Assembly: GCA_002269645.1 (NCBI GenBank)
Contig: NIVC01003715.1
Coordinates: 1 to 46,163, forward strand
Direction of reading: 5' to 3'
DNA length: 46,163 bases
From: Macrostomum lignano
Taxonomy: Eukaryota
Numbering within the stretch: the first letter of the stretch is position 1; each line of letters begins with the position of its first letter. The translations under genes and the position numbers were made by a program. Shown here in pieces: positions 36,983 to 46,163 of the stretch. A model generated the notes under the pieces. The model was not told the origin of the DNA. It worked only from the letters and a program-made list of their open reading frames with translations, and searched no databases.

Positions 36983-38226
36983 ACCTCGGACAGTGCACGT
37001 GCACCTACTTGCTTGATTTAGAACTTAGAAGTCCATATAAGGTGATCGCCAAGGGCGGATCGATTTGGGGCCGCCCCCCCCCGCCCAATTTCGGTTATGA
37101 ATTGGTAATTTTTCCGTAAATCCCTAACTAAAAATGTTTAAAGAAAATTTTTACCGGGTTTATGGCGCCCCCACTGACGCCGAGGTCCCCAAAGCCTGAC
37201 ATCTCCTACATGCGCGACACCCATCCCGCCACTTGCCCGTACCCCATAAAGATTTTCAGCGCCCACCAAAGACTAGACAGTAGGGGGTAGTAAAACTGTT
37301 TTGCACGAAATCTGTGATGCCGGGCGTCTCTGCTGCGACTGCTGGCGCCCCTGATGCAACTGCTGGCGCTTCTGGTTGCTCCATGGACACCGGCGCACCG
37401 CCACTCAACTACCACAATGCCGCATACTGTTTGAGTGATCGATGGAAAGGCAGAGAAATGCTTCCTAAGGCATAAGCATCTACTACATGTATAGAGTATA
37501 GGCTCTGCTGTACATCCACTCCGACGTTGCAGTCGATTAGGTTCGGGTAATCGATTGATTTTACATGAGTATAGTAGCCGTCGCATAGATTTTGCAGTGT
37601 AAACTTTGCCGCCCCGCGTGACTGTAAATAACTGACTCTGTTTATTGCCAAAGTTTCTCAGTTTCTGATCTCTGTCGCTCCAAAATGCTCTTTACATGTG
37701 CGCTGACTTGCACTTCCTCTCTCCCTATTCTCTGGTTGATCGATCCATTAAGCAACCAGAGGACCCACTTGGATGGACCATCGACAAAGTTGTCGAAGCC
37801 GGAGTTAGGGGTTGCTGAGGCTAGAGCAAAATTCTCTCTCATAGGATTCGTCTAAAGTTATAAGCCCGTATAACTTCGCTTGTTTCAATTGACCTAACAT
37901 TTCCTGAATTCCTGTGCCTATGTGTCATCAAATTCATATGTTTTCGCAACTGCCAAGTTCAAAATATACATAAAAATATTATATTAAATTCTATTCTACA
38001 CAGTCACTTGAAAAATTAGCTCTCGTTTGGTTTGTTTAGGTTGTAACAATAATGGGTTAAATGCGAAAAAATGCGTTAAATTTTGACAAGCTATAAATTA
38101 TAGCTCGTAGTTAACGATTAGCAAACAGTTAATGATTATGCAGTTGTGACCATCATTGTGATGAGACTACGTATCGTGCAGAAACTGCAGGGTTTTGGAG
38201 GTGAGGTGGGTGTCAGAGGTGGGTGT

Positions 38227-38322
38227 CATTGCAGGATAAACAGGCTGCGGAATCCTGTCAACTGGTGTTACTCGAACAGGGACAGGTAGTATTAGACGTT
38301 CTAATATATCTAGACTATTCAT
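38227..38322 (-). pseudogene. 5' remnant of an adenain-type maturation cysteine protease
   Basis: ATG 57 nt past the MCP stop. With one base restored it reads MNSLDILERLILPVLF(G)VTPVDRIPQPVYPAM, like Polinton protease N-termini, then breaks off before the His/Cys motifs. Confidence 0.5.
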
Positions 38323-38378: not shown

Positions 38379-39662
38379 CTACACGTAGTCTAGAATAACC
38401 TGACGACCGCGAGTGATTTGCACAGTACTGTCGAAGTAGCCAAACACCAACACGTTGATTCCTGCGGTTAAGGCAGCAGAAAACTTTATTTGTAGCGTCA
38501 GATTCCCTTGCTCGCGAGGCATGCTATGCCCACCCAGCTCCATGTCGGGCATGAGATTCCAGGCGAAGAAGCAGTAGCCAGCTCCATAGTCGGAATATGA
38601 TACGTCAATATCCAGGTCCCGATTCATTTTTCCTAGGCTTTTTAGTAACATAGCATACTCGCGAGCATAGTTATGAACACCGAATCGAGGAGTAAACGGT
38701 TGTCCACACAGACTGACTCCGTCCTTATACAGAGCCACACTGTCGGCTCCAAATGGCTCAAAATTAAACGGGTTATGTGTAGCCACACCGTTGTACGCGC
38801 CGCTGTTTACCATGCCAACAATCACCAGTTTAGGCTTTTGTTCAGGAAATATATTGTTGATTGACATGTCCCGAACACCGCCAGCCACTGAAGTATTGTG
38901 CACAACAAGTCGCTCAATCGGATAGATTGCATTCTGTTTGCCTAGTTGTTCTTCAATCTCCAATGCCAATTGGGGGTTTGCCTTGACGCGGCGCACATGT
39001 AGTCTGGCACTCTCGAGTACCAGCCGCGCCTCAACCCCGTCCGCGTGGTTTTCCAAAACGAAGCCGGAATTGTGCATAGTTAGCGTAATTACCATATCAG
39101 TGTATGGCAACAGCATTCGGTCGTTGGTAACAAAAAAGTCTAAACTAAGAGGTCCATAAAGGTGAAAGGTGCGTGAGTTTGCCGCCATCGCCTTGCGGGC
39201 TACAAAACCAGGATTTCCAACCACAGCCATTTGTCCTCCAGCGTCCTTTGCGTAGCCCATCATTCTCAGTTGGTTGGTTTTTGAATCGTGTCCGTAATTC
39301 AAACACGTGCGAATATAGGCCTTGTAAGCGTGGTTGTTATTGCTCGACTCTACGTGGGTCCCGTTGATTGTCAACGTGACGTTTTTAAACATGCTTTCAA
39401 GGACGTAATTGACCGGCGCAACATTCGAATCAGCAGCAAGATTTGTGCCATTAGATTGCCTAACGCGGGCCTTAATCTCGAGGTCAATGTCGTTAAGATC
39501 GATAAACGTCTCACCACCAACAATCCTAAATTCGACCACGCTGGCATTTTCAACACTAGCAACAGGGTGAACTTCTTCAGTGGTGGCGCTAATTGCAGCA
39601 ATTTTGTGTGCTCGAGGAGCAAATAGCTCGAATTCCGACTTTGTACACAGGCACTCAGTCAT
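38379..39662 (-). CDS. Polinton double-jelly-roll major capsid protein (hexon-like), 427 aa, intact
   Basis: N-terminal CxKSEFELFxP, DLNDIDLEIKARV, APVNYVLESMF, HAYKAYI, NPFNF, GYCFFAWNL, C-terminal I-x-R-x-x-x-V-I-L-D-Y; typical length. Confidence 0.92.
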   Translation of the reverse strand: MTECLCTKSEFELFAPRAHKIAAISATTEEVHPVASVENASVVEFRIVGGETFIDLNDIDLEIKARVRQSNGTNLAADSNVAPVNYVLESMFKNVTLTINGTHVESSNNNHAYKAYIRTCLNYGHDSKTNQLRMMGYAKDAGGQMAVVGNPGFVARKAMAANSRTFHLYGPLSLDFFVTNDRMLLPYTDMVITLTMHNSGFVLENHADGVEARLVLESARLHVRRVKANPQLALEIEEQLGKQNAIYPIERLVVHNTSVAGGVRDMSINNIFPEQKPKLVIVGMVNSGAYNGVATHNPFNFEPFGADSVALYKDGVSLCGQPFTPRFGVHNYAREYAMLLKSLGKMNRDLDIDVSYSDYGAGYCFFAWNLMPDMELGGHSMPREQGNLTLQIKFSAALTAGINVLVFGYFDSTVQITRGRQVILDYV

Positions 39663-39693
39663 TTTTCTTTCAACAGCGGCTTAGAGTGGTGCT

Positions 39694-40041
39694 CTAATAG
39701 GCAGATCGATTATTGACGCGGGTTTTTTTATTTATAGAGTCAAAAATATCAGAATGTTGGAGTCTTTTTCTAGTTTTTTTGTTAGTCTTCTTTCTACGCC
39801 TTTGACCACCGCCGCTACCTCGTTGTGTGACTGTGTCTTTGAAAGCATCTTTAGCTGCCCGGACAGAGTTGCGCAATGCTGCTTCTTTCAAGTTCCCGCC
39901 TTGATCGAGTGTGTCGCTAACTGTTGTAGCTAGGGCTCGTGTTCCGTGGCGAAGAATATTTTTGCCAAAACTCTTTAAAATTGGCAGGGCAAATCGGGCA
40001 ATGCTGCCAAACAGTGCTCCTCCGATCAAGATTGAAGGCAT
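39694..40041 (-). CDS. Small basic/amphipathic Polinton virion protein between penton and MCP, 115 aa
   Basis: GGALFGSIARFALPILK amphipathic helix, QRGSG motif, Arg/Lys-rich tail; position conserved in Polintons. Confidence 0.7.
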   Translation of the reverse strand: MPSILIGGALFGSIARFALPILKSFGKNILRHGTRALATTVSDTLDQGGNLKEAALRNSVRAAKDAFKDTVTQRGSGGGQRRRKKTNKKTRKRLQHSDIFDSINKKTRVNNRSAY

Positions 40042-40085
40042 ATTGCTGATGAATTGCGGTCTTTAATTCGTGAAAACTTCTTTAT

Positions 40086-41264
40086 TTATAGCTTAATTTC
40101 ACGAATGTTGATCGATAAAACAGTTTTACCAAGAAGAATCCGATCCATTAGCTTGCCCATATCGTCACAGATTTGCACCTCAATGGTTTTACGAGTAAAT
40201 GGGTGCTTCACCAACGGTAAGTATGATAGATTGACAAACTCGTAGTACTCTCGTTCACCGTATACCTTTTCATTCAAAGGAATTGCACCAAGCAGGGCGA
40301 CTTTGACGTCTCCAACAATGGCAGAGTCGACAATGTTTGAATAGATGTACATAGTTTGTACACCATTTGTTAAATCGATTGGTCGTTTAGCGGTCTTTGG
40401 AGTTTCATTAAAAGAATCATCTTCGCGAAAGCCGAGAATGGCAGCAAGCTCACCAATTTCAAATAAAATGTTTTCAATGGGTTTGTACTCACACCGGTTC
40501 AGAAAAGGGTTGTAGCTGAATGCATCCACTCTCGTTGCTGGACTTATTGGGAGCTTTGAAACGACGCTCCAAAGCGCTCCATTAACATAATTTAAGAGCC
40601 CATCGGGCGTGCGGTAGAATCCTTTAGCAATCCGCAGTGACGTTCTACTAGGCCAGACACTTTTTTCAAACGTTAGAGTCATGGGACTCTCTATGGAGGA
40701 GGAGGATTCCAATTCTATAGCGAATACTAAAGAAATTCTTGGGTTTAATAAAAAACTCGTTCCTTCGATATTTGATTTATTTCCAGCGTCATCGACCTTT
40801 TTAAACATGCTGCGCACATTACTGGACAGCCTAATGTTCGCACCATACCATGATTTGTTCACAATCGAAATTTGGCCTTCCTGTGAACGCTCAATGCAAA
40901 TCATCGCATTATTGTATTGCTCATATTTTAGAGCGGCAATGATCGCATCAACCACTTCGTTAGCTGTTGATAGCCCCGCGGGGAGAGAAACCGACGCAAA
41001 TTGCTTATACGTGGAGGCGGGTTTTTCTCTAACCTCAATATCGATCACTTCATCCTCGGGAGTGTTGGTCAGGACATCAACCATTCGATTATCGGGGACG
41101 GTTTTGAATTCTTTACAAAAGTAGATCCGTTCGATGCAGACTTCATGATTCGGAAAGTGGAGGGTGTCGGGCAAATTAATGTCATAATGTGCCGAATTAT
41201 TCTCAGGATAGTGCTCAACGCACGCATTGCTAGGTAGGAAAAGATGCATTGTAATATACCACAC
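40086..41264 (-). CDS. Polinton minor capsid protein (penton), ~390 aa, intact; likely start MHLFLPSN at 41249
   Basis: LPSN...YPENNSAHYDINLP N-terminus; C-terminal MYIYSNIVDSAIVGDVKVALL...YLPL...IEVQICDDMG. Confidence 0.88.
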   Translation of the reverse strand: MWYITMHLFLPSNACVEHYPENNSAHYDINLPDTLHFPNHEVCIERIYFCKEFKTVPDNRMVDVLTNTPEDEVIDIEVREKPASTYKQFASVSLPAGLSTANEVVDAIIAALKYEQYNNAMICIERSQEGQISIVNKSWYGANIRLSSNVRSMFKKVDDAGNKSNIEGTSFLLNPRISLVFAIELESSSSIESPMTLTFEKSVWPSRTSLRIAKGFYRTPDGLLNYVNGALWSVVSKLPISPATRVDAFSYNPFLNRCEYKPIENILFEIGELAAILGFREDDSFNETPKTAKRPIDLTNGVQTMYIYSNIVDSAIVGDVKVALLGAIPLNEKVYGEREYYEFVNLSYLPLVKHPFTRKTIEVQICDDMGKLMDRILLGKTVLSINIREIKL

Positions 41265-41283
41265 GTTTCGACTGTGCGTGTGT

Positions 41284-42355
41284 TCATCCTTGTCTTATAT
41301 TTATAACTTCCTCAACTGGTACAAATGCATTGAACGACTCGGGATAGCCGCGCCAACTAACGAAATGATGAGCGACACCATTGATGACGACATTGCGACG
41401 CAGAATTTTGTCTATAACAAAGCGGTCCGGTCGAACCGTCTTTGAAAGTTCATTATAGTAGAATCGACCCTCGATTTGTTCTCCAGATAGGTCGGAAATG
41501 CGATAAAAATGAGGTGGTCCCGGGCATACTTGAGACACAACGTAAACTTCTTCGCTGTACATATCGTATGCTTCCTTGTCAAAGGCTCGACGAGATTTTG
41601 AAATTCTGACAAAGTCCCCTTTTTGGTAAACTGGTTCATCATATTCAGGATCCTGGTAGAGCTTTTCCCACAATTCTTTTTGGTTGTGCAGACCGACACT
41701 CGAAGGTTTCATGTCAATAGTAGAGTGTACTGTGTTGTTGTAACTTTTAACCAATATTGGCAAATAGTCGATCCAGCGCCACGTGTTTTTGTGCTTAAAG
41801 TAGCGAGCTAAACGTTTTCGGAGAGTTCTAATCAACCTTTCAGCCATATTTGCCTTGTATACAGAGTTTGTGCTGTACATTTTGATACTGTTGGCTTTCA
41901 GTAAGTTCTGCATGCGATTGTTTTAAAACTCGGTACCTCGATCAACGCGTAGATATAAAGGCTTAATAGGGAAGTCTATGATCATGCTTTCAAAAGCCTT
42001 TGGAGTGTCGCTTTTCAATTTTATTGGCTGACAAAAAGCCAATTTACTAAGCACGTCAATTGCAACCAGAATATCGATGACCATCATTCCATTGTTCGTA
42101 TCGTGACATGTCCATCAAATCCGCTTGCACAGTTTCCATGAAGCCTCCTGACATTACTTTTCCGGTTCGGAATTTTCTTTTAACCCTCTTGTGCCGGGTG
42201 AAGCTCGATTGGGTCTTCAGCCATTCGTCGGTTTGGCGTCTCGTCAGGGAGGAGGCCAGCCGTTTGGCCTCCTGATATACACGGGCAGCATTTGTAAAAG
42301 CGGCATCCCCCTGTTCGTACACTCTCCGAAGAGCGGTTTTCACCCTCATTCGCAA
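41284..42355 (-). pseudogene. Polinton retroviral-like (RVE) integrase with C-terminal chromodomain, disrupted
   Basis: QADLMD / VDRGTEF / MAERL D-D-E triad; chromodomain IDKIL...FVSWRGYP. A 2-nt loss near 42070 shifts the frame, and an in-frame TAA at 41923-41925 sits where EFYN is expected. Confidence 0.92.
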
Positions 42356-42486
42356 CTAGAGTCGATGCACAGCATGAGTAATTACACTTGAACTCCACAG
42401 ACGGTTTGTCTGAGCAAAGCTTTGAAGTTAAAGCTGCAGCACCCATGATCCAAAAACAGATTATAAATCATGAAAATGATTTCTAT

Positions 42487-43128
42487 TTATAGTTTTTTTA
42501 ACGTCTCGTATTTTACTGCTGGTTTCTGCCGCCTCTTTGGTTCGCGATGTTGGTATGAAGCATGCCTGTAGGCATCGCTGCCACGATCTTCAAATTTTTT
42601 AACTTCATTCAGGCCACTGGCTCGGTCTTTGTGGAAGTCGTTGTAGAAATCACTAGTTCCAATTGCTTGCTCGACTAAAAAATCGTCTCGATCCGGATCC
42701 GTGCCGATTTCTTTTTTCACGCTGACTTCTTCTTGTTGGTGTCGTCCTAGTAGAGCTTTTGCAATATCTGCCTCTTCAGCCAGGGCCCAAAAAGCGGTAC
42801 TATATTTTGGGCTTGGGCGGTCGCGCCTTTCATCTTCCTTCAGTAGATCGAAAGTATTGCTTCCTGGCCAGGTTTTTCCATCAAATACAATTTCCCACGA
42901 CTTGTTGAGCTCCAAATTTGGGTATCTTTCTGTCAACATGTCCCAATTTCGTTGTTGTCGTTCAGGAAAACGATTACTCTTCTTTTGCTTGATCTGAATT
43001 AGTTTATTTTGGAGTTGAGTGTTGTATTCAATGAGTTTTTCATATTCTGTTTTAGATGCAATTTCTCGGGGTGCGCCTTGACTCAGTCTATTAAATTCTT
43101 CTTCTGGCACAACAACGTATTTATTCAT
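42487..43128 (-). CDS. Conserved uncharacterised Polinton protein (~213 aa; start MNKYVVVPEE)
   Basis: Hydrophobic-VP start and W-E-I-V-F-D-G-K-T-W-P-G-S-N-T-F-D-L motif, as recalled for ORFs directly upstream of Polinton integrases; ATG 1 nt after the preceding stop. Confidence 0.6.
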   Translation of the reverse strand: MNKYVVVPEEEFNRLSQGAPREIASKTEYEKLIEYNTQLQNKLIQIKQKKSNRFPERQQRNWDMLTERYPNLELNKSWEIVFDGKTWPGSNTFDLLKEDERRDRPSPKYSTAFWALAEEADIAKALLGRHQQEEVSVKKEIGTDPDRDDFLVEQAIGTSDFYNDFHKDRASGLNEVKKFEDRGSDAYRHASYQHREPKRRQKPAVKYETLKKL

Positions 43129-43129
43129 T

Positions 43130-43446
43130 TTAGCGACCGAGTAGTCCACCAAACAGGCTTGATATTAGCGGTGCAGCAACAGATGCAAGGATGGGTAGAA
43201 AACCACCGACTTGAGGATTCGAGAGAAGCATATTCTTCTTCCTATTTATAGACAATTTTGTGTCTGCCAATTCACGCTGCGAATCTTCTGTATCGCTTTA
43301 ATCGCAGATACTGTTTCGGAGAAAGGTCAATATTTCCCCCGGAGTCCGTTGTGACTCAATTCACAGAGACAATGAATCAGTTCCTTGTGTAGAGATCTCC
43401 AAACACAGTAGCCTACTGTGTAGCCTACTGTGTAAAGTAGTAACAT
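43130..43446 (-). pseudogene. pX/'cupiennin'-like small virion protein, at least 2 frameshifts
   Basis: Joined frames: ELIHCLCELSHNGLRG(fs)NIDLSPKQYLRLKRYR(fs)ELADTKLSINRKKNMLLSNPQVGGFLPILASVAAPLISSLFGGLLGR*. Confidence 0.75.
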
Positions 43447-45129
43447 AAAATTATGAACACAAATTTAAGAATAGCTATGTGTCATACTCTATTTTTAGTA
43501 ATACCAGTCATATCACGCAAACAGCGAGTGGCTATGCTATTGTTCGAAAAAAACCGGTTCTCGACATCTATTTTTAGAACTTCCAAATATGGTAAATGTT
43601 AACCTGAATGTGACCCAAGTCTCACCCCTTTCTATTCAAAAACCTCACCTGTCAAATAATAAAATTCCTTTCGTGAACTCATCAAAAAACCGGTTTTGAG
43701 CTCAAGGTCGACTCAAGGCCGAAAAATTGTGTATAAATACAAACGCAAAATCCGAGCTAAAATCTCAGACTCGGCAGCCTCCAAAGATCTTGGGCTTTGC
43801 AAGAGCAGCCAACGAGGCTATATCTCTGAGGAAGAGATAAACACCAATTGGAAAGCTTTGTTTGAGACTTCGTTATTTTGATTATTGAGAGCGATTATTA
43901 TTGCCGGCCGTTACCGTTCAGTTGATTTTATTGAGTCTATTTAGTTTGAGGCCTCCCATTTTCCTAAGGGATTGGATAGGATCTGCGGACCGATTCCGAT
44001 ACCCTTAGAGGATTATCGATTGATTGATTTTGGTTATCCTAGATTAACCGATAGGAGCACACGACTCCGATTCCGTTAGATCTAGAAGAAGACGCCCTTC
44101 TTGGAGGTCCTCGTGATTATTACAGAAAGTTGATTTTATTACAAGGGCGCATCGTTGATATTGATTACTGAGCTTAAGGCCTATGTTGATTTGCACTCGA
44201 GGAAATACTGCGACGTCGATTTTATTGTTACGCTCTCACTTTCGGCCGATTCTAGACTTCAAGAAGATTCCTCCGGAGAAGAAGATTGGAAGAAGCAAGT
44301 TCTAAACACGCGCGCAACAAAGAAGAAGAAACAAGGAACGAGCTCGGAGAACCTGCCCGACGAAGAAGAGGAGCCCGCAACAGTAAGTGCACTACATTTT
44401 TGTTCCCAGGCTTAAGTGTCTGGAAGTGGGAGTTTTCGGGGGACTGATCACCTCCCGAATCAACTCTTCACTTGCCTGCACCTCGAATAATTGCCCGCCG
44501 AAGAGTGGGACGGGCTTTGGCGAGCTCTGCGAGCTCGCCGCGACAAGAACATAGTCTGGAGATTCCGTTTGTCATTTTGTTTAGCACAAAGATGTTGGTT
44601 GCAGTGCATCGCAATTTATGCACAATATATTTATAGACAAGTTACATAGCAGCATTACGATTGTACACCAATTTCAGTGCAGTGGTAATTGACAATAAAG
44701 TTACACAACATTTGTGACAGCATTAAAAATCCAAAAGCTCCTGTGAGGAGATGTTGCTAGGTGTCGAGAAGGGTACAAAACAAACAATGGAGACACGTAC
44801 CGATTGTGGAACTTCTTAAATTTTACAATCGCTGCTACGGCAGGATCTGTGTTATCAGAGGGTCATCAATCAAATATTTTTGACAGTTAAAAATCGAAAA
44901 CAGGGTCAATCAACCCCACATTACTTTTGTTGCTGCGTGGTGGAACGTGCCGAGTTGGGGTTTTGTTGCTTAGGGGTGGGGCGATAAAATTGCTGCTGCC
45001 GCCGGGCAATAAATCAAAAGTTTTTGACAGTTTTAAAAAATCCAAGCGGTCAGAATTTTAGAGACCATGCGCATTTTCATTGCAGATTTACAGTGGTTAA
45101 ACAGTAAAGCTACGCAATAGCTATATGGA

Positions 45130-45610
45130 TTAGACATACAAAACGCTAGTCACATGATCGTACATTTGACAGAGCTCTTTAAAGTTTCGTATACCAAGGA
45201 AAACAAGGCGGCCATTCTTTCCGCATAATAAACATTTAGCATTGCGAAATGGAGACTTTATTACTATTCCATTGAAAACTTCGCACTCCCACTTCACCCA
45301 TTGGGACCCTGAGTATGCAATTTGGAAAAAATTTGGCCATCTGTCTACTTCAGCGCGGTAAGTTAACAACAACAGAAATTGGTTTACATTGAGGAAAAAG
45401 ACGCAAAACTTGGTTGACTGAGCGACAACCGAATACAATTGCAGACAAAGAACGCTGACAAAAGTTTATTGTACACTTTCCTATCCTCAAATTGATAAGA
45501 GCTCTTGGTCTGCGAAATGTCCGTGCGCTCGCCCAGTCCAAGTCAGGCATGCGGCTCCATTTCGCGCAAAACACTCGATTCACGCACTCGACGTTCTGCA
45601 AGTAGATTTT
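45130..45610 (-). pseudogene. TBP (TATA-binding protein)-like ORF, one frameshift near 45360, start codon not evident
   Basis: Second half WECEVFNGIVIK...GKNGRLVFLGIRNFKELCQMYDHVTSVL aligns by eye to TBP repeat 2 (YEPELFPGLIYR...[28 protein letters not shown]); first half LQNV...SAIVFGCRS to repeat 1 (LQNI...KMVCTGAKS). Confidence 0.65.
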
Positions 45611-45623
45611 TCGGCAGTTTTCT

Positions 45624-46163
45624 TTACTTCGTATCCTTCTTGGGGGCTTTCGGCCGCTTCTTTGATTCGTTGCTGCTACTACTTTCGATTGATGCTGTCG
45701 CTTTCTGGCCTGATTTTTAGGCACCTTTGGCTGCTTCTCCTTGACAAGCTTTGGTGGTTTCTTTGCTTTCTTGCTTACTTTCTTGGAGCCTACCTTGATT
45801 TTTGGAGGTGGCGTCCAATAGCAACGGTCGAATGCCTGTTTGGCTTCTTCGACAAACTGTAGCTGTTGAATTTTTGGCATTGCGGTCAAAACAGCGTCTC
45901 GAATCACGGCCGTGTCGAGAGTAAACAGAATCCTGTAATAGCCGCTCTTGTTTTTATAATCCTCTACAGGCAGTCCGTTTTGGTCGTACATTTTAAAATC
46001 GCGAGCCAGCCCAACGCTGCACTGTCGCCTCCAAACGCTGGTTGTAGCCCAGAAGAGCTAGACTTTCACTGGAAAGGTGCTCCGCCACAGTGTTGAAAGT
46101 GTAGGGTATGCAGCTCTCAATGTGTTTTTGTGCAATGATGATGAATTCGCGACCTTCGTTGTC
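45624..46163 (-). pseudogene. 3' part of an unknown Polinton-associated gene with Lys-rich tail, ~2 frameshifts, 5' end outside the window
   Basis: Coding-like frames switch near 46020 and at an A5 run near 45716, ending ...SSSSNESKKRPKAPKKDTK*. Confidence 0.45.

Follow-up and report, generated by a model that had tools for sequence, protein, structure and literature searches.

Polintons are defined by pPolB together with an integrase, according to the portion of Krupovic 2016 (PMC5499653) available to us. A gene for a TATA-binding protein (TBP)-like product is labelled on a map of adintovirus-like viruses in Starrett 2021 (PMC8502044) and is left undiscussed in the text as accessed, and the accessible part of Wallace 2021 (PMC8363768) describes Vesanto virus as segmented and bidna-like. 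Concerning TBPs, the available sections of Ravarani 2020 (PMC7221094) assign the stirrup glutamates to TFIIB binding and a basic N-lobe patch to Mot1, NC2 and TFIIA, and report that viral TBPs have usually lost the TFIIB-binding signature and are often accompanied by a viral TFIIB. Neither a bipartite Polinton nor a functional Polinton TBP was found in our literature search, whose coverage was without figures, bioRxiv supplements, Repbase reports and subscription journals. Term searches within the accessible text gave 0 matches for TBP or transcription in Krupovic 2024 (PMC11161782), 0 for TATA or non-autonomous in Jeong 2023, and 0 in one supplement file of Starrett 2021.

In this study, we analysed a stretch of 46,163 nucleotides (the window), which is contig C3715 of the 764-Mb genome of Macrostomum lignano; contig C3385 is near-identical to it. 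We consider, with a probability of roughly 55%, that this genome carries a bipartite integrating dsDNA virus of the Polinton lineage in two independent two-segment systems. One segment of ~10 kb would hold the integrase, the virion genes and a TFIIB-recruiting mini-TBP acting as a splicing-activated late switch, the other would hold pPolB and a PC4-like protein, and segments and passengers would draw on one reshuffled pool of terminal sequences and be sized to a half-length capsid. Taken by itself, the TBP gene is a divergent representative of a known kind. The surprising result is the two-part organisation, in which essential genes are divided between element types with matching termini, known from integrated copies alone.

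The TBP-like gene of the window was found in minus-strand frames 45,350-46,057 and 45,130-45,465, which encode a degenerate first and a recognisable second TBP repeat. The sequence-only reading had described two such repeats in two frames interrupted by a single break, and this was borne out: compared with its siblings, the window copy has a short deletion near 45,363 that shifts the frame, and C3385 has the same one. That reading had also taken the frame 45,350-45,991 as part of the gene. The frame does contain repeat 1, but it is not a single gene, as it runs from an upstream gene through a variable spacer into the repeat. The spacer is 198 nt long in the window and 199 nt on C3385, and its length is divisible by three in only 2 of 52 locus rows (duplicates counted).

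We searched the genome for further copies. With the DNA of the region, at least 48 matches were obtained (40 of 106 candidates scored), and both repeats lay in one frame at 11 of the 20 loci compared. With the protein, the search returned 90 match rows (96/96 candidates scored), which formed two families: family A, to which the window belongs, with 93-100% DNA identity, and family B, with 77% protein identity to A and many identical copies. The intact copies that had been proposed as a check do exist, since 39 of the 90 rows are full length and stop-free (18 in A, 21 in B). The assembly seems to contain duplicated haplotypes, C3385 for the window among them, and the copy counts are therefore inflated. 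The TBP-like domain is under purifying selection, with a dN/dS of 0.11 between families A and B and near-equal values for its two lobes (0.097 and 0.096).

The genes around the TBP-like gene form a capsid-type element (Table 1). The results confirmed the Polinton-type setting, with terminal repeats, a 6-bp duplication, an integrase and virion-type genes, and also the co-orientation with the capsid cluster, as the integrase, penton-like, MCP-like and protease genes all lie on the strand of the TBP-like gene. The insertion starts at 38,166, and its target duplication was confirmed on C3385. In capsid elements generally, all genes are on one strand, the ends read 5'-ACTAC, and most copies have the 6-bp duplication. 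Terminal repeats were present in 10 of 12 fetched regions and bounded 9.8-11 kb, with one element of 14 kb holding a nested transposase ORF. A jelly-roll capsid/protease/ATPase module is suggested by homology to the same-position genes of pPolB Polintons, Pfam matches being weak only; the protease label comes from a weak Peptidase_C48 match (E 0.14, family B) and from position. The MCP-like gene is the presumed major capsid protein gene, and the capsid, core, penton and PW-like labels are our own assignments from position and weak homology. Beyond the TBP break, the window copy is damaged by deletion of the ATPase and most of the protease, by the frameshift in the integrase and by a 1.08-kb repeat in the PW-like gene.

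Table 1. Features of the capsid-type element in the window (coordinates are positions in the window).
Feature	Position	Strand	Remarks
6-bp target-site duplication, left end	38160..38165		matching 6 bp flank the other end on C3385
Element end	38166..38215		27-nt variable tip starting ACTAC, then conserved inner motif; rest of terminal repeat deleted here
Maturation protease remnant	38230..38322	-	most of protease and packaging ATPase gene deleted here; siblings carry both
MCP-like gene, 433-codon open frame	38379..39680	-	26-33% identity to same-position gene of pPolB Polintons; no Pfam match
Small basic core-protein-like gene	39694..40062	-	conserved in all siblings
Penton (minor capsid)-like gene	40086..41294	-	label from position; no Pfam match
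Retroviral-type integrase with C-terminal chromo-like domain	41284..42376	-	frameshifted here; Chromo E 0.006; rve E 6.5e-10 in family B
Conserved ORF of about 215-225 codons (ORF225)	42487..43164	-	conserved in siblings
Small conserved PW-like gene	43133..44575	-	split by unrelated 1.08-kb repeat at 43,388-44,466
TATAAATA box	44628..44636	-	further boxes at 43,243, 42,484, about 41,298, 40,083 and 39,729, each ahead of a gene
378-bp piece	44711..45088		present in a subset of family-A capsid elements; resembles (~80%) part of polA polymerase-only elements
TBP-like two-lobe domain, predicted second exon	45130..45595	-	broken near 45,363; ~157 codons in unbroken siblings
Predicted GT-AG intron	45596..45793	-	unspliced reading would encode a basic tail of the upstream gene
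3' part of conserved upstream ORF, predicted first exon	45794..46163	-	runs off the window; frameshifted near 46,020

Several side observations were made on these elements. Minisatellites and simple repeats make up most of window positions 1-38,100 (the whole window has 36 tandem-repeat rows), and translations of repeats account for the long frames inspected from 27,000 onward. Relatives of the 1.08-kb repeat occur in other fetched loci at 67-92% identity. Family B elements carry a Fic/DOC-domain ORF (L052:6083-6886, E 7e-14) and a small Cys-rich ORF at the left end, and family A is without both. Long ORFs with a presumed resemblance to THAP/P-element transposases are nested in the capB element L141 (C4:388,255) and in the polA-type element L295 (C2132).

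We analysed the fold on natural unbroken siblings and not on the broken copy of the window. A six-sequence family profile was searched against the PDB, and 35 of 35 matched sequences were TBPs (best E 2e-6). An AlphaFold model of the domain (pLDDT 73, pTM 0.56) gave 44 Foldseek matches in the PDB at E<=0.001 (best 2e-7), and every match listed was a TBP entry. In a VIA comparison with 48,161 chains, the top five were TBPs with Z 10.6-7.5 and an rmsd of 7.4-8.3 Å over 153-156 residues, and the next chain had Z 5.8. The Foldseek fit of the model to TBP had a TM of about 0.4 and an rmsd of about 8.5 Å; both lobes match, and their mutual orientation fits poorly (rmsd about 8 Å). The best BFVD matches were the HaV TBP (E 2.5e-7) and gammaherpesvirus BcRF1 (E 7e-4, best TM 0.53). 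TBPs ranked first in these profile and fold searches, the kind of check that the sequence-only reading had proposed. Its check against PF00352 succeeded in part: the family-B copy fell just short of the curated cut-off (E 9.5e-5, 22.6 bits against 22.9) and five of the six profile members matched at E<=1, but family A gave none, and the family-A copies and window frames had no TBP match in single-sequence Pfam and PDB searches. These findings indicate that the protein almost certainly has the TBP fold.

Five homologues of the TBP-like protein were found in outside records, one of them named TBP by its source. A search of 1.84 billion proteins returned 3 matches, one being the spurious repeat protein P0006, and no long fused form was among them. 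The Atlas gave no usable match for the TBP-like protein or P0008, and no related locus was confirmed in the viral and metagenome contigs searched.

We then compared individual residues, with the DNA-contact positions located on the host sequence. Both stirrup glutamates of the C-lobe are kept in families A and B and in four outside homologues. Compared with host TBP, the N-lobe Asn (in A and B) and one Phe per lobe are kept. In total, 2 of 4 intercalating Phe, 1 of 2 Asn (the C-lobe Asn is changed) and 0 of 2 Thr are retained, the first N-lobe Phe falling in an alignment gap; P0002 has S where the residue alignment gave N, which is an alignment slip. The four intercalating Phe and the paired Asn/Thr are what we assume to be the TATA-recognition set. 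Helix H2 and the linker comprise 24 residues with 2-3 K/R, against 35 residues with 8 K/R in host TBP. Retention of both glutamates predicts that the protein would use host TFIIB, and judged from its residues, binding of TATA DNA by the mini-TBP is doubtful.

The sequence-only reading had called the gene intronless, which is probably wrong. The TBP-like domain is likely a second exon that would be spliced onto the upstream gene. The upstream ORF comprises about 182 conserved codons in siblings, with a dN/dS of 0.08. Its model had a pLDDT of 36 and no VIA match above Z 3.6, and no Pfam match was found; a PHROG single-strand-binding match (E 0.55) was obtained with one of six members, and we presume a resemblance to T7-type SSB. 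No usable ATG precedes the first strand of the TBP-like domain. In family B no Met occurs until the last helix, and the first Met of family A is preceded by 15 codons that are themselves constrained (dN/dS 0.08). A GT...AG stretch separates the conserved upstream ORF from the first strand; it spans 196-206 nt in family A and 66-67 nt in family B. Relative to the upstream frame, most A copies are offset by -1 and B copies by +1, and a conserved programmed frameshift was rejected because the offset differs between the families.

Splice-site signatures were found on both sides of this stretch. Between the upstream protein and four outside homologues, conservation ends at IKV in 6 of 6 sequences, and in the codon for the residue that follows (G, G, R, C, R, C) position 2 is G throughout, which corresponds to the donor +5 position. 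P0009 and P0002 overlap by 47 codons in the +1 frame (shuffled maximum 5), which excludes an ATG start for P0002; the overlap of P0011 and P0003 is 18 codons. Related TBP-like frames on contigs C424 and C2285 open immediately after a pyrimidine-rich AG acceptor; each has a stop in the same frame shortly before it, and the first Met lies 43 (C424) or 46 (C2285) codons in. In 8 contig runs we saw no splice joint at the predicted intron, and in 6 of them a contig bridged the intron unspliced; these runs are only guessed to be RNA, their contigs drop rare forms, and X2 and X9 are without cover across the spacer. In the sequencing-run search, no listed run holding the locus is recorded as RNA. As the mini-TBP probably begins at a splice site, annotation relying on ATG codons would overlook or shorten it.

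The TATA boxes were then counted. Five matches of TATAAATA with a leading C were counted, where 0.33 were expected and 0 of 100 shuffles reached 5. Each of the 4 capsid elements examined has 7 copies of TATAAATA, on the coding strand only (0.1-0.25 expected), at matching places ahead of the first unit and the PW-like, ORF225, integrase, penton, core and MCP genes; in these 4 elements none stands directly before the TBP exon. Polymerase elements have 0-1 copies. Family C elements, which bear pPolB, have a better-preserved TBP yet only 1-2 boxes. A private promoter word was rejected, as TATAAATA is a canonical TATA word, and a sigma-70 promoter scan was not relevant to the element. The proposal that the element encodes its own promoter-recognition factor for late genes therefore stands only in part: seven boxes precede capsid-element genes, but they are canonical and host TBP could serve them unaided. 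A role of the TBP-like protein in late-gene expression is plausible from these sequence features.

The expected linkage to pPolB was not found. None of the 16 capsid elements carries a pPolB gene (0/13 and 0/3 more), absence being scored with three markers; the family-C marker alone misses polA and polB. A pPolB hidden in longer capsid-type elements was rejected, as these held other insertions or no recognisable genes, and no helicase-sized ORF was present in the two capsid elements mapped. Copies not linked to MCP, penton or pPolB had been named as evidence against the Polinton reading; pPolB is unlinked in every copy examined, and the linkage to the capsid module holds. The missing pPolB is explained by an element family without a polymerase, which is carried by separate elements with matching ends, and not by a host retrocopy.

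These separate elements belong to two pPolB families, polA and polB. They measure 8.8-10.4 kb, apart from one nested copy extending over 18 kb, and have ACTAC termini and 6-bp duplications. Besides pPolB, a PC4-like protein is often encoded, and in one element a dUTPase as well. Capsid, integrase and ATPase genes were absent from 12 of 12 polA/polB regions and from C307 (0/13). Uninterrupted elements with these ends measure 7.5-11 kb, against 16.5-16.8 kb for two complete pPolB Polintons in the genome. The capsid halves of the two systems differ at a dS of about 1.4-2.2, and their polymerases are 61% identical. Integrase-type 6-bp duplications flank elements that have no integrase, and elements that have no polymerase were amplified, which would fit mutual complementation. 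We regard it as likely that capsid-type and polymerase-type elements complement each other as two parts.

Within one insertion, the two ends almost always agree in the outer 27 nt of the terminal repeat, whereas different insertions have different tips. We took 109 ends, of which 103 start with ACTAC, and obtained 67 distinct tips. With ends classed by their inner repeat, so that the polA and polB classes include gene-less passengers, mean tip identity was 0.62 between capA and polA (0.64 within capA) and 0.57 between capB and polB (0.56 within capB), against 0.28-0.31 across systems. Exact half-tips were shared only within a system (3+5 and 6+2; 0 across). An inner 23-nt motif joins capA to polB and not to polA, so the terminal histories are mosaic. 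A polA-like piece is present inside some capA copies, including that of the window. The tips themselves are fine-grained mosaics (for example window 38,166-38,192; loci L190-L279), and family C ends vary likewise; template switching at origins is possibly the source of this mosaicism.

Of 18 same-ended regions, 3 belonged to the capsid type, 3 to the polymerase type and 11 to neither type; one pair did not represent a single insertion. Of the 11 that fit neither type, ten were non-coding passengers of 7.5-9.9 kb or held nested elements, and the remaining one has PC4 and dUTPase genes without pPolB. Shared ends alone thus do not prove a needed partner. The length of the passengers suggests a packaging-size constraint. 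Gene-less elements of 7.5-9.4 kb that share these ends and have 6-bp duplications fall into two families, one for each system (L286-L288, L292-L294, L296-L298; C56, C181, C201, C293, C657, C982, C93, C176, C436). An 18.4-kb insertion at C56:643,541-661,960 (L306-L307) has capB-type ends and a 6-bp duplication, with no marker gene and no 300-codon frame.

TBP genes are common among the Polintons of this genome. PF00352 had at least 150 matches (150 of 330 candidates scored), and in 14 of 15 sampled TBP-bearing regions a TBP-like ORF lay near pPolB, 12 of them also with an MCP. Family C TBPs have their own ATG and a full H2. In family C, an upstream ORF of 283-305 codons overlaps TBP repeat 1 in another frame for more than 100 codons (L086 C754:63,100-64,261; L103 C130:903,992-905,081), and repeat 1 is nearly invariant across subfamilies, whereas repeat 2 varies. 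Two more Polinton-type families, at C2285:176,242 (L153) and C424:420,995 (L167), have TBP-like domains with a shortened H2 that start at textbook 3' splice sites; no pPolB was seen in the fetched stretch of C424. C1769 holds yet another TBP type. The host TBP core and a TRF2-like gene, each one open frame, occur on three contigs (L070/C70, L076/C350, L281/C469), and TFIIB-like exons also lie on several contigs.

We built a tree that included the host genes, as had been proposed. The capA/B sequences cluster with the outside homologues in a single branch (100/98) that includes neither host TBP nor the TRF2-like gene. The capA/B sequences group with C2285 and C424 at 97/97 with all rows and at 92/97 without P0005 and C1769, the two longest rows; long branches meet in this tree, from which P0007 was dropped as too short. 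As the tree is unrooted and contains no archaeal or NCLDV outgroup, we make no claim about its root or a donor.

Alternative explanations of the gene were weighed against these results. That the gene is a host TBP retrocopy or an unrelated insertion beside a Polinton gains something from the host TBP frame, which is itself intronless. However, the domain has the same position inside terminal-repeat-bounded elements in both families, outside-record homologues have the same upstream neighbour, and the separate branch of the tree lies away from both host genes; synteny across copies refutes a retrocopy, and we give this explanation practically no weight. Expression of the TBP frame unspliced, whether initiated at a near-cognate TTG or reached from the upstream ORF by a +1 frameshift, would agree with a TTG at the same place in A, B and, by inference, P0002, with the +1 overlap kept in B and in the protein pattern of four outside homologues, and with the contigs that bridge the spacer. 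It is nevertheless quite improbable: family A has a different offset, C424 has an in-frame TAG directly before the domain and behind the pyrimidine tract, impassable for a frameshift or an upstream start, and the donor-like constraint after IKV is left unexplained. With splicing preferred, the function of the product was considered. A decoy or late repressor would bind TFIIB or other partners without productive TATA binding and dampen host or early viral transcription, leaving host TBP to read the capsid boxes. The invariant TFIIB-binding glutamates beside a much-changed DNA-binding surface speak for it, as do the canonical boxes. Against it, one Phe per lobe and the N-lobe Asn are kept, and the equal constraint on the lobes is more than a one-surface decoy needs. 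We consider a decoy unlikely, though the least so of these alternatives, and lean towards an activator.

The two-part reading was weighed in the same way. The capsid and polymerase types could be defective derivatives of a rare, unassembled or exogenous one-piece Polinton, with no mutual dependence. Non-coding passengers with the same ends do show mobilisation in trans, and the census, in which 91 of 974 pPolB and 150 of 361 MCP candidates were scored, may have overlooked a rare complete element. On the other side, two diverged systems show the same split, both halves keep long frames, and none of the 16 capsid and 13 polymerase elements combined the two modules; in the longer candidates, either other insertions or no recognisable genes were present. 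C1485, the only contig in both the MCP and the pPolB match lists, has the two genes about 47 kb apart in separate terminal-repeat pairs. We judge defective derivatives to be improbable and retain two complementary parts.

Taken together, we somewhat favour the following reading. The element is of Polinton type, ~10 kb long and without a polymerase, and likely forms the capsid-and-integrase half of a two-part virus; its reduced TBP-fold domain is predicted to recruit host TFIIB and Pol II to TATA boxes and so switch on the capsid genes. On induction, the polymerase half would copy all ACTAC-ended molecules from their shared ends. Splicing of the upstream transcript would replace a basic-tailed upstream protein with a fusion bearing the mini-TBP, which may then bring host TFIIB and Pol II to the element's TATA boxes. 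Its shortened, less basic H2 could let it escape control by TFIIA, Mot1 and NC2. Half-length molecules would be packaged by the capsid half, whose integrase would insert either half.

If true, these loci record in a genome how a dsDNA virus lineage went from monopartite to bipartite, and they offer a natural intermediate towards segmented pPolB-bearing bidna-like viruses. Dozens of dated insertions of each half would allow tests of models of multipartite evolution. By implication, polymerase-less and capsid-less 'defective' Mavericks elsewhere may be unrecognised partners. To our knowledge, Polintons have no RNA polymerase of their own, and the mini-TBP offers a handle on the timing of capsid genes in elements without one.

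Compared with known systems, so far as the accessible parts of the cited sources describe them, the element resembles Polintons, Mavericks and adintoviruses (PMC5499653, PMC8502044, Arkhipova 2019 PMC6431247) in its terminal inverted repeats, 6-bp duplication, rve integrase and MCP-, penton-, protease- and ATPase-like genes. Unlike them, it has pPolB and the integrase on different elements of 9-11 kb and not on one of 15-25 kb. The ends of the capsid elements read 5'-ACTAC, whereas those of this genome's complete family C read 5'-AGTAG. Tlr1 and Polinton-like viruses (PMC5499653) likewise have a virion module without pPolB, and Tlr1 an integrase, but they carry a helicase instead, and here a protease gene is present. 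Bidnaviruses and Drosophila Vesanto virus (PMC8363768, PMC8502044) share a pPolB-bearing genome in segments with similar terminal repeats; they are described as ssDNA, whereas the system here has its own integrase and a Polinton-type virion module.

For the protein, the likeness to cellular and archaeal TBP (PF00352; PDB 1mp9, 7o4i_O) lies in the full-length two-lobe fold, the C-lobe stirrup glutamates and one Phe per lobe. It differs in having 13-20% identity in structural alignments, a model N-lobe without helix H1, an H2 cut by about 11 residues and replacement of two Phe, the C-lobe Asn and both Thr, and it is probably fused behind an unrelated domain. With the TBPs of large dsDNA viruses and herpesvirus TBP mimics (PMC7221094, PMC12529657), as far as these texts were available, it shares a virus-encoded TBP fold with a degenerate regulatory N-lobe. 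In contrast to the large-virus systems, the promoter word here is canonical, with no private late motif. None of the 15 listed TFIIB-repeat matches (23/23 candidates scored) lay in a known capsid element, and the mini-TBP differs from large-virus TBPs, as described in the accessible sections, in keeping both TFIIB-binding glutamates.
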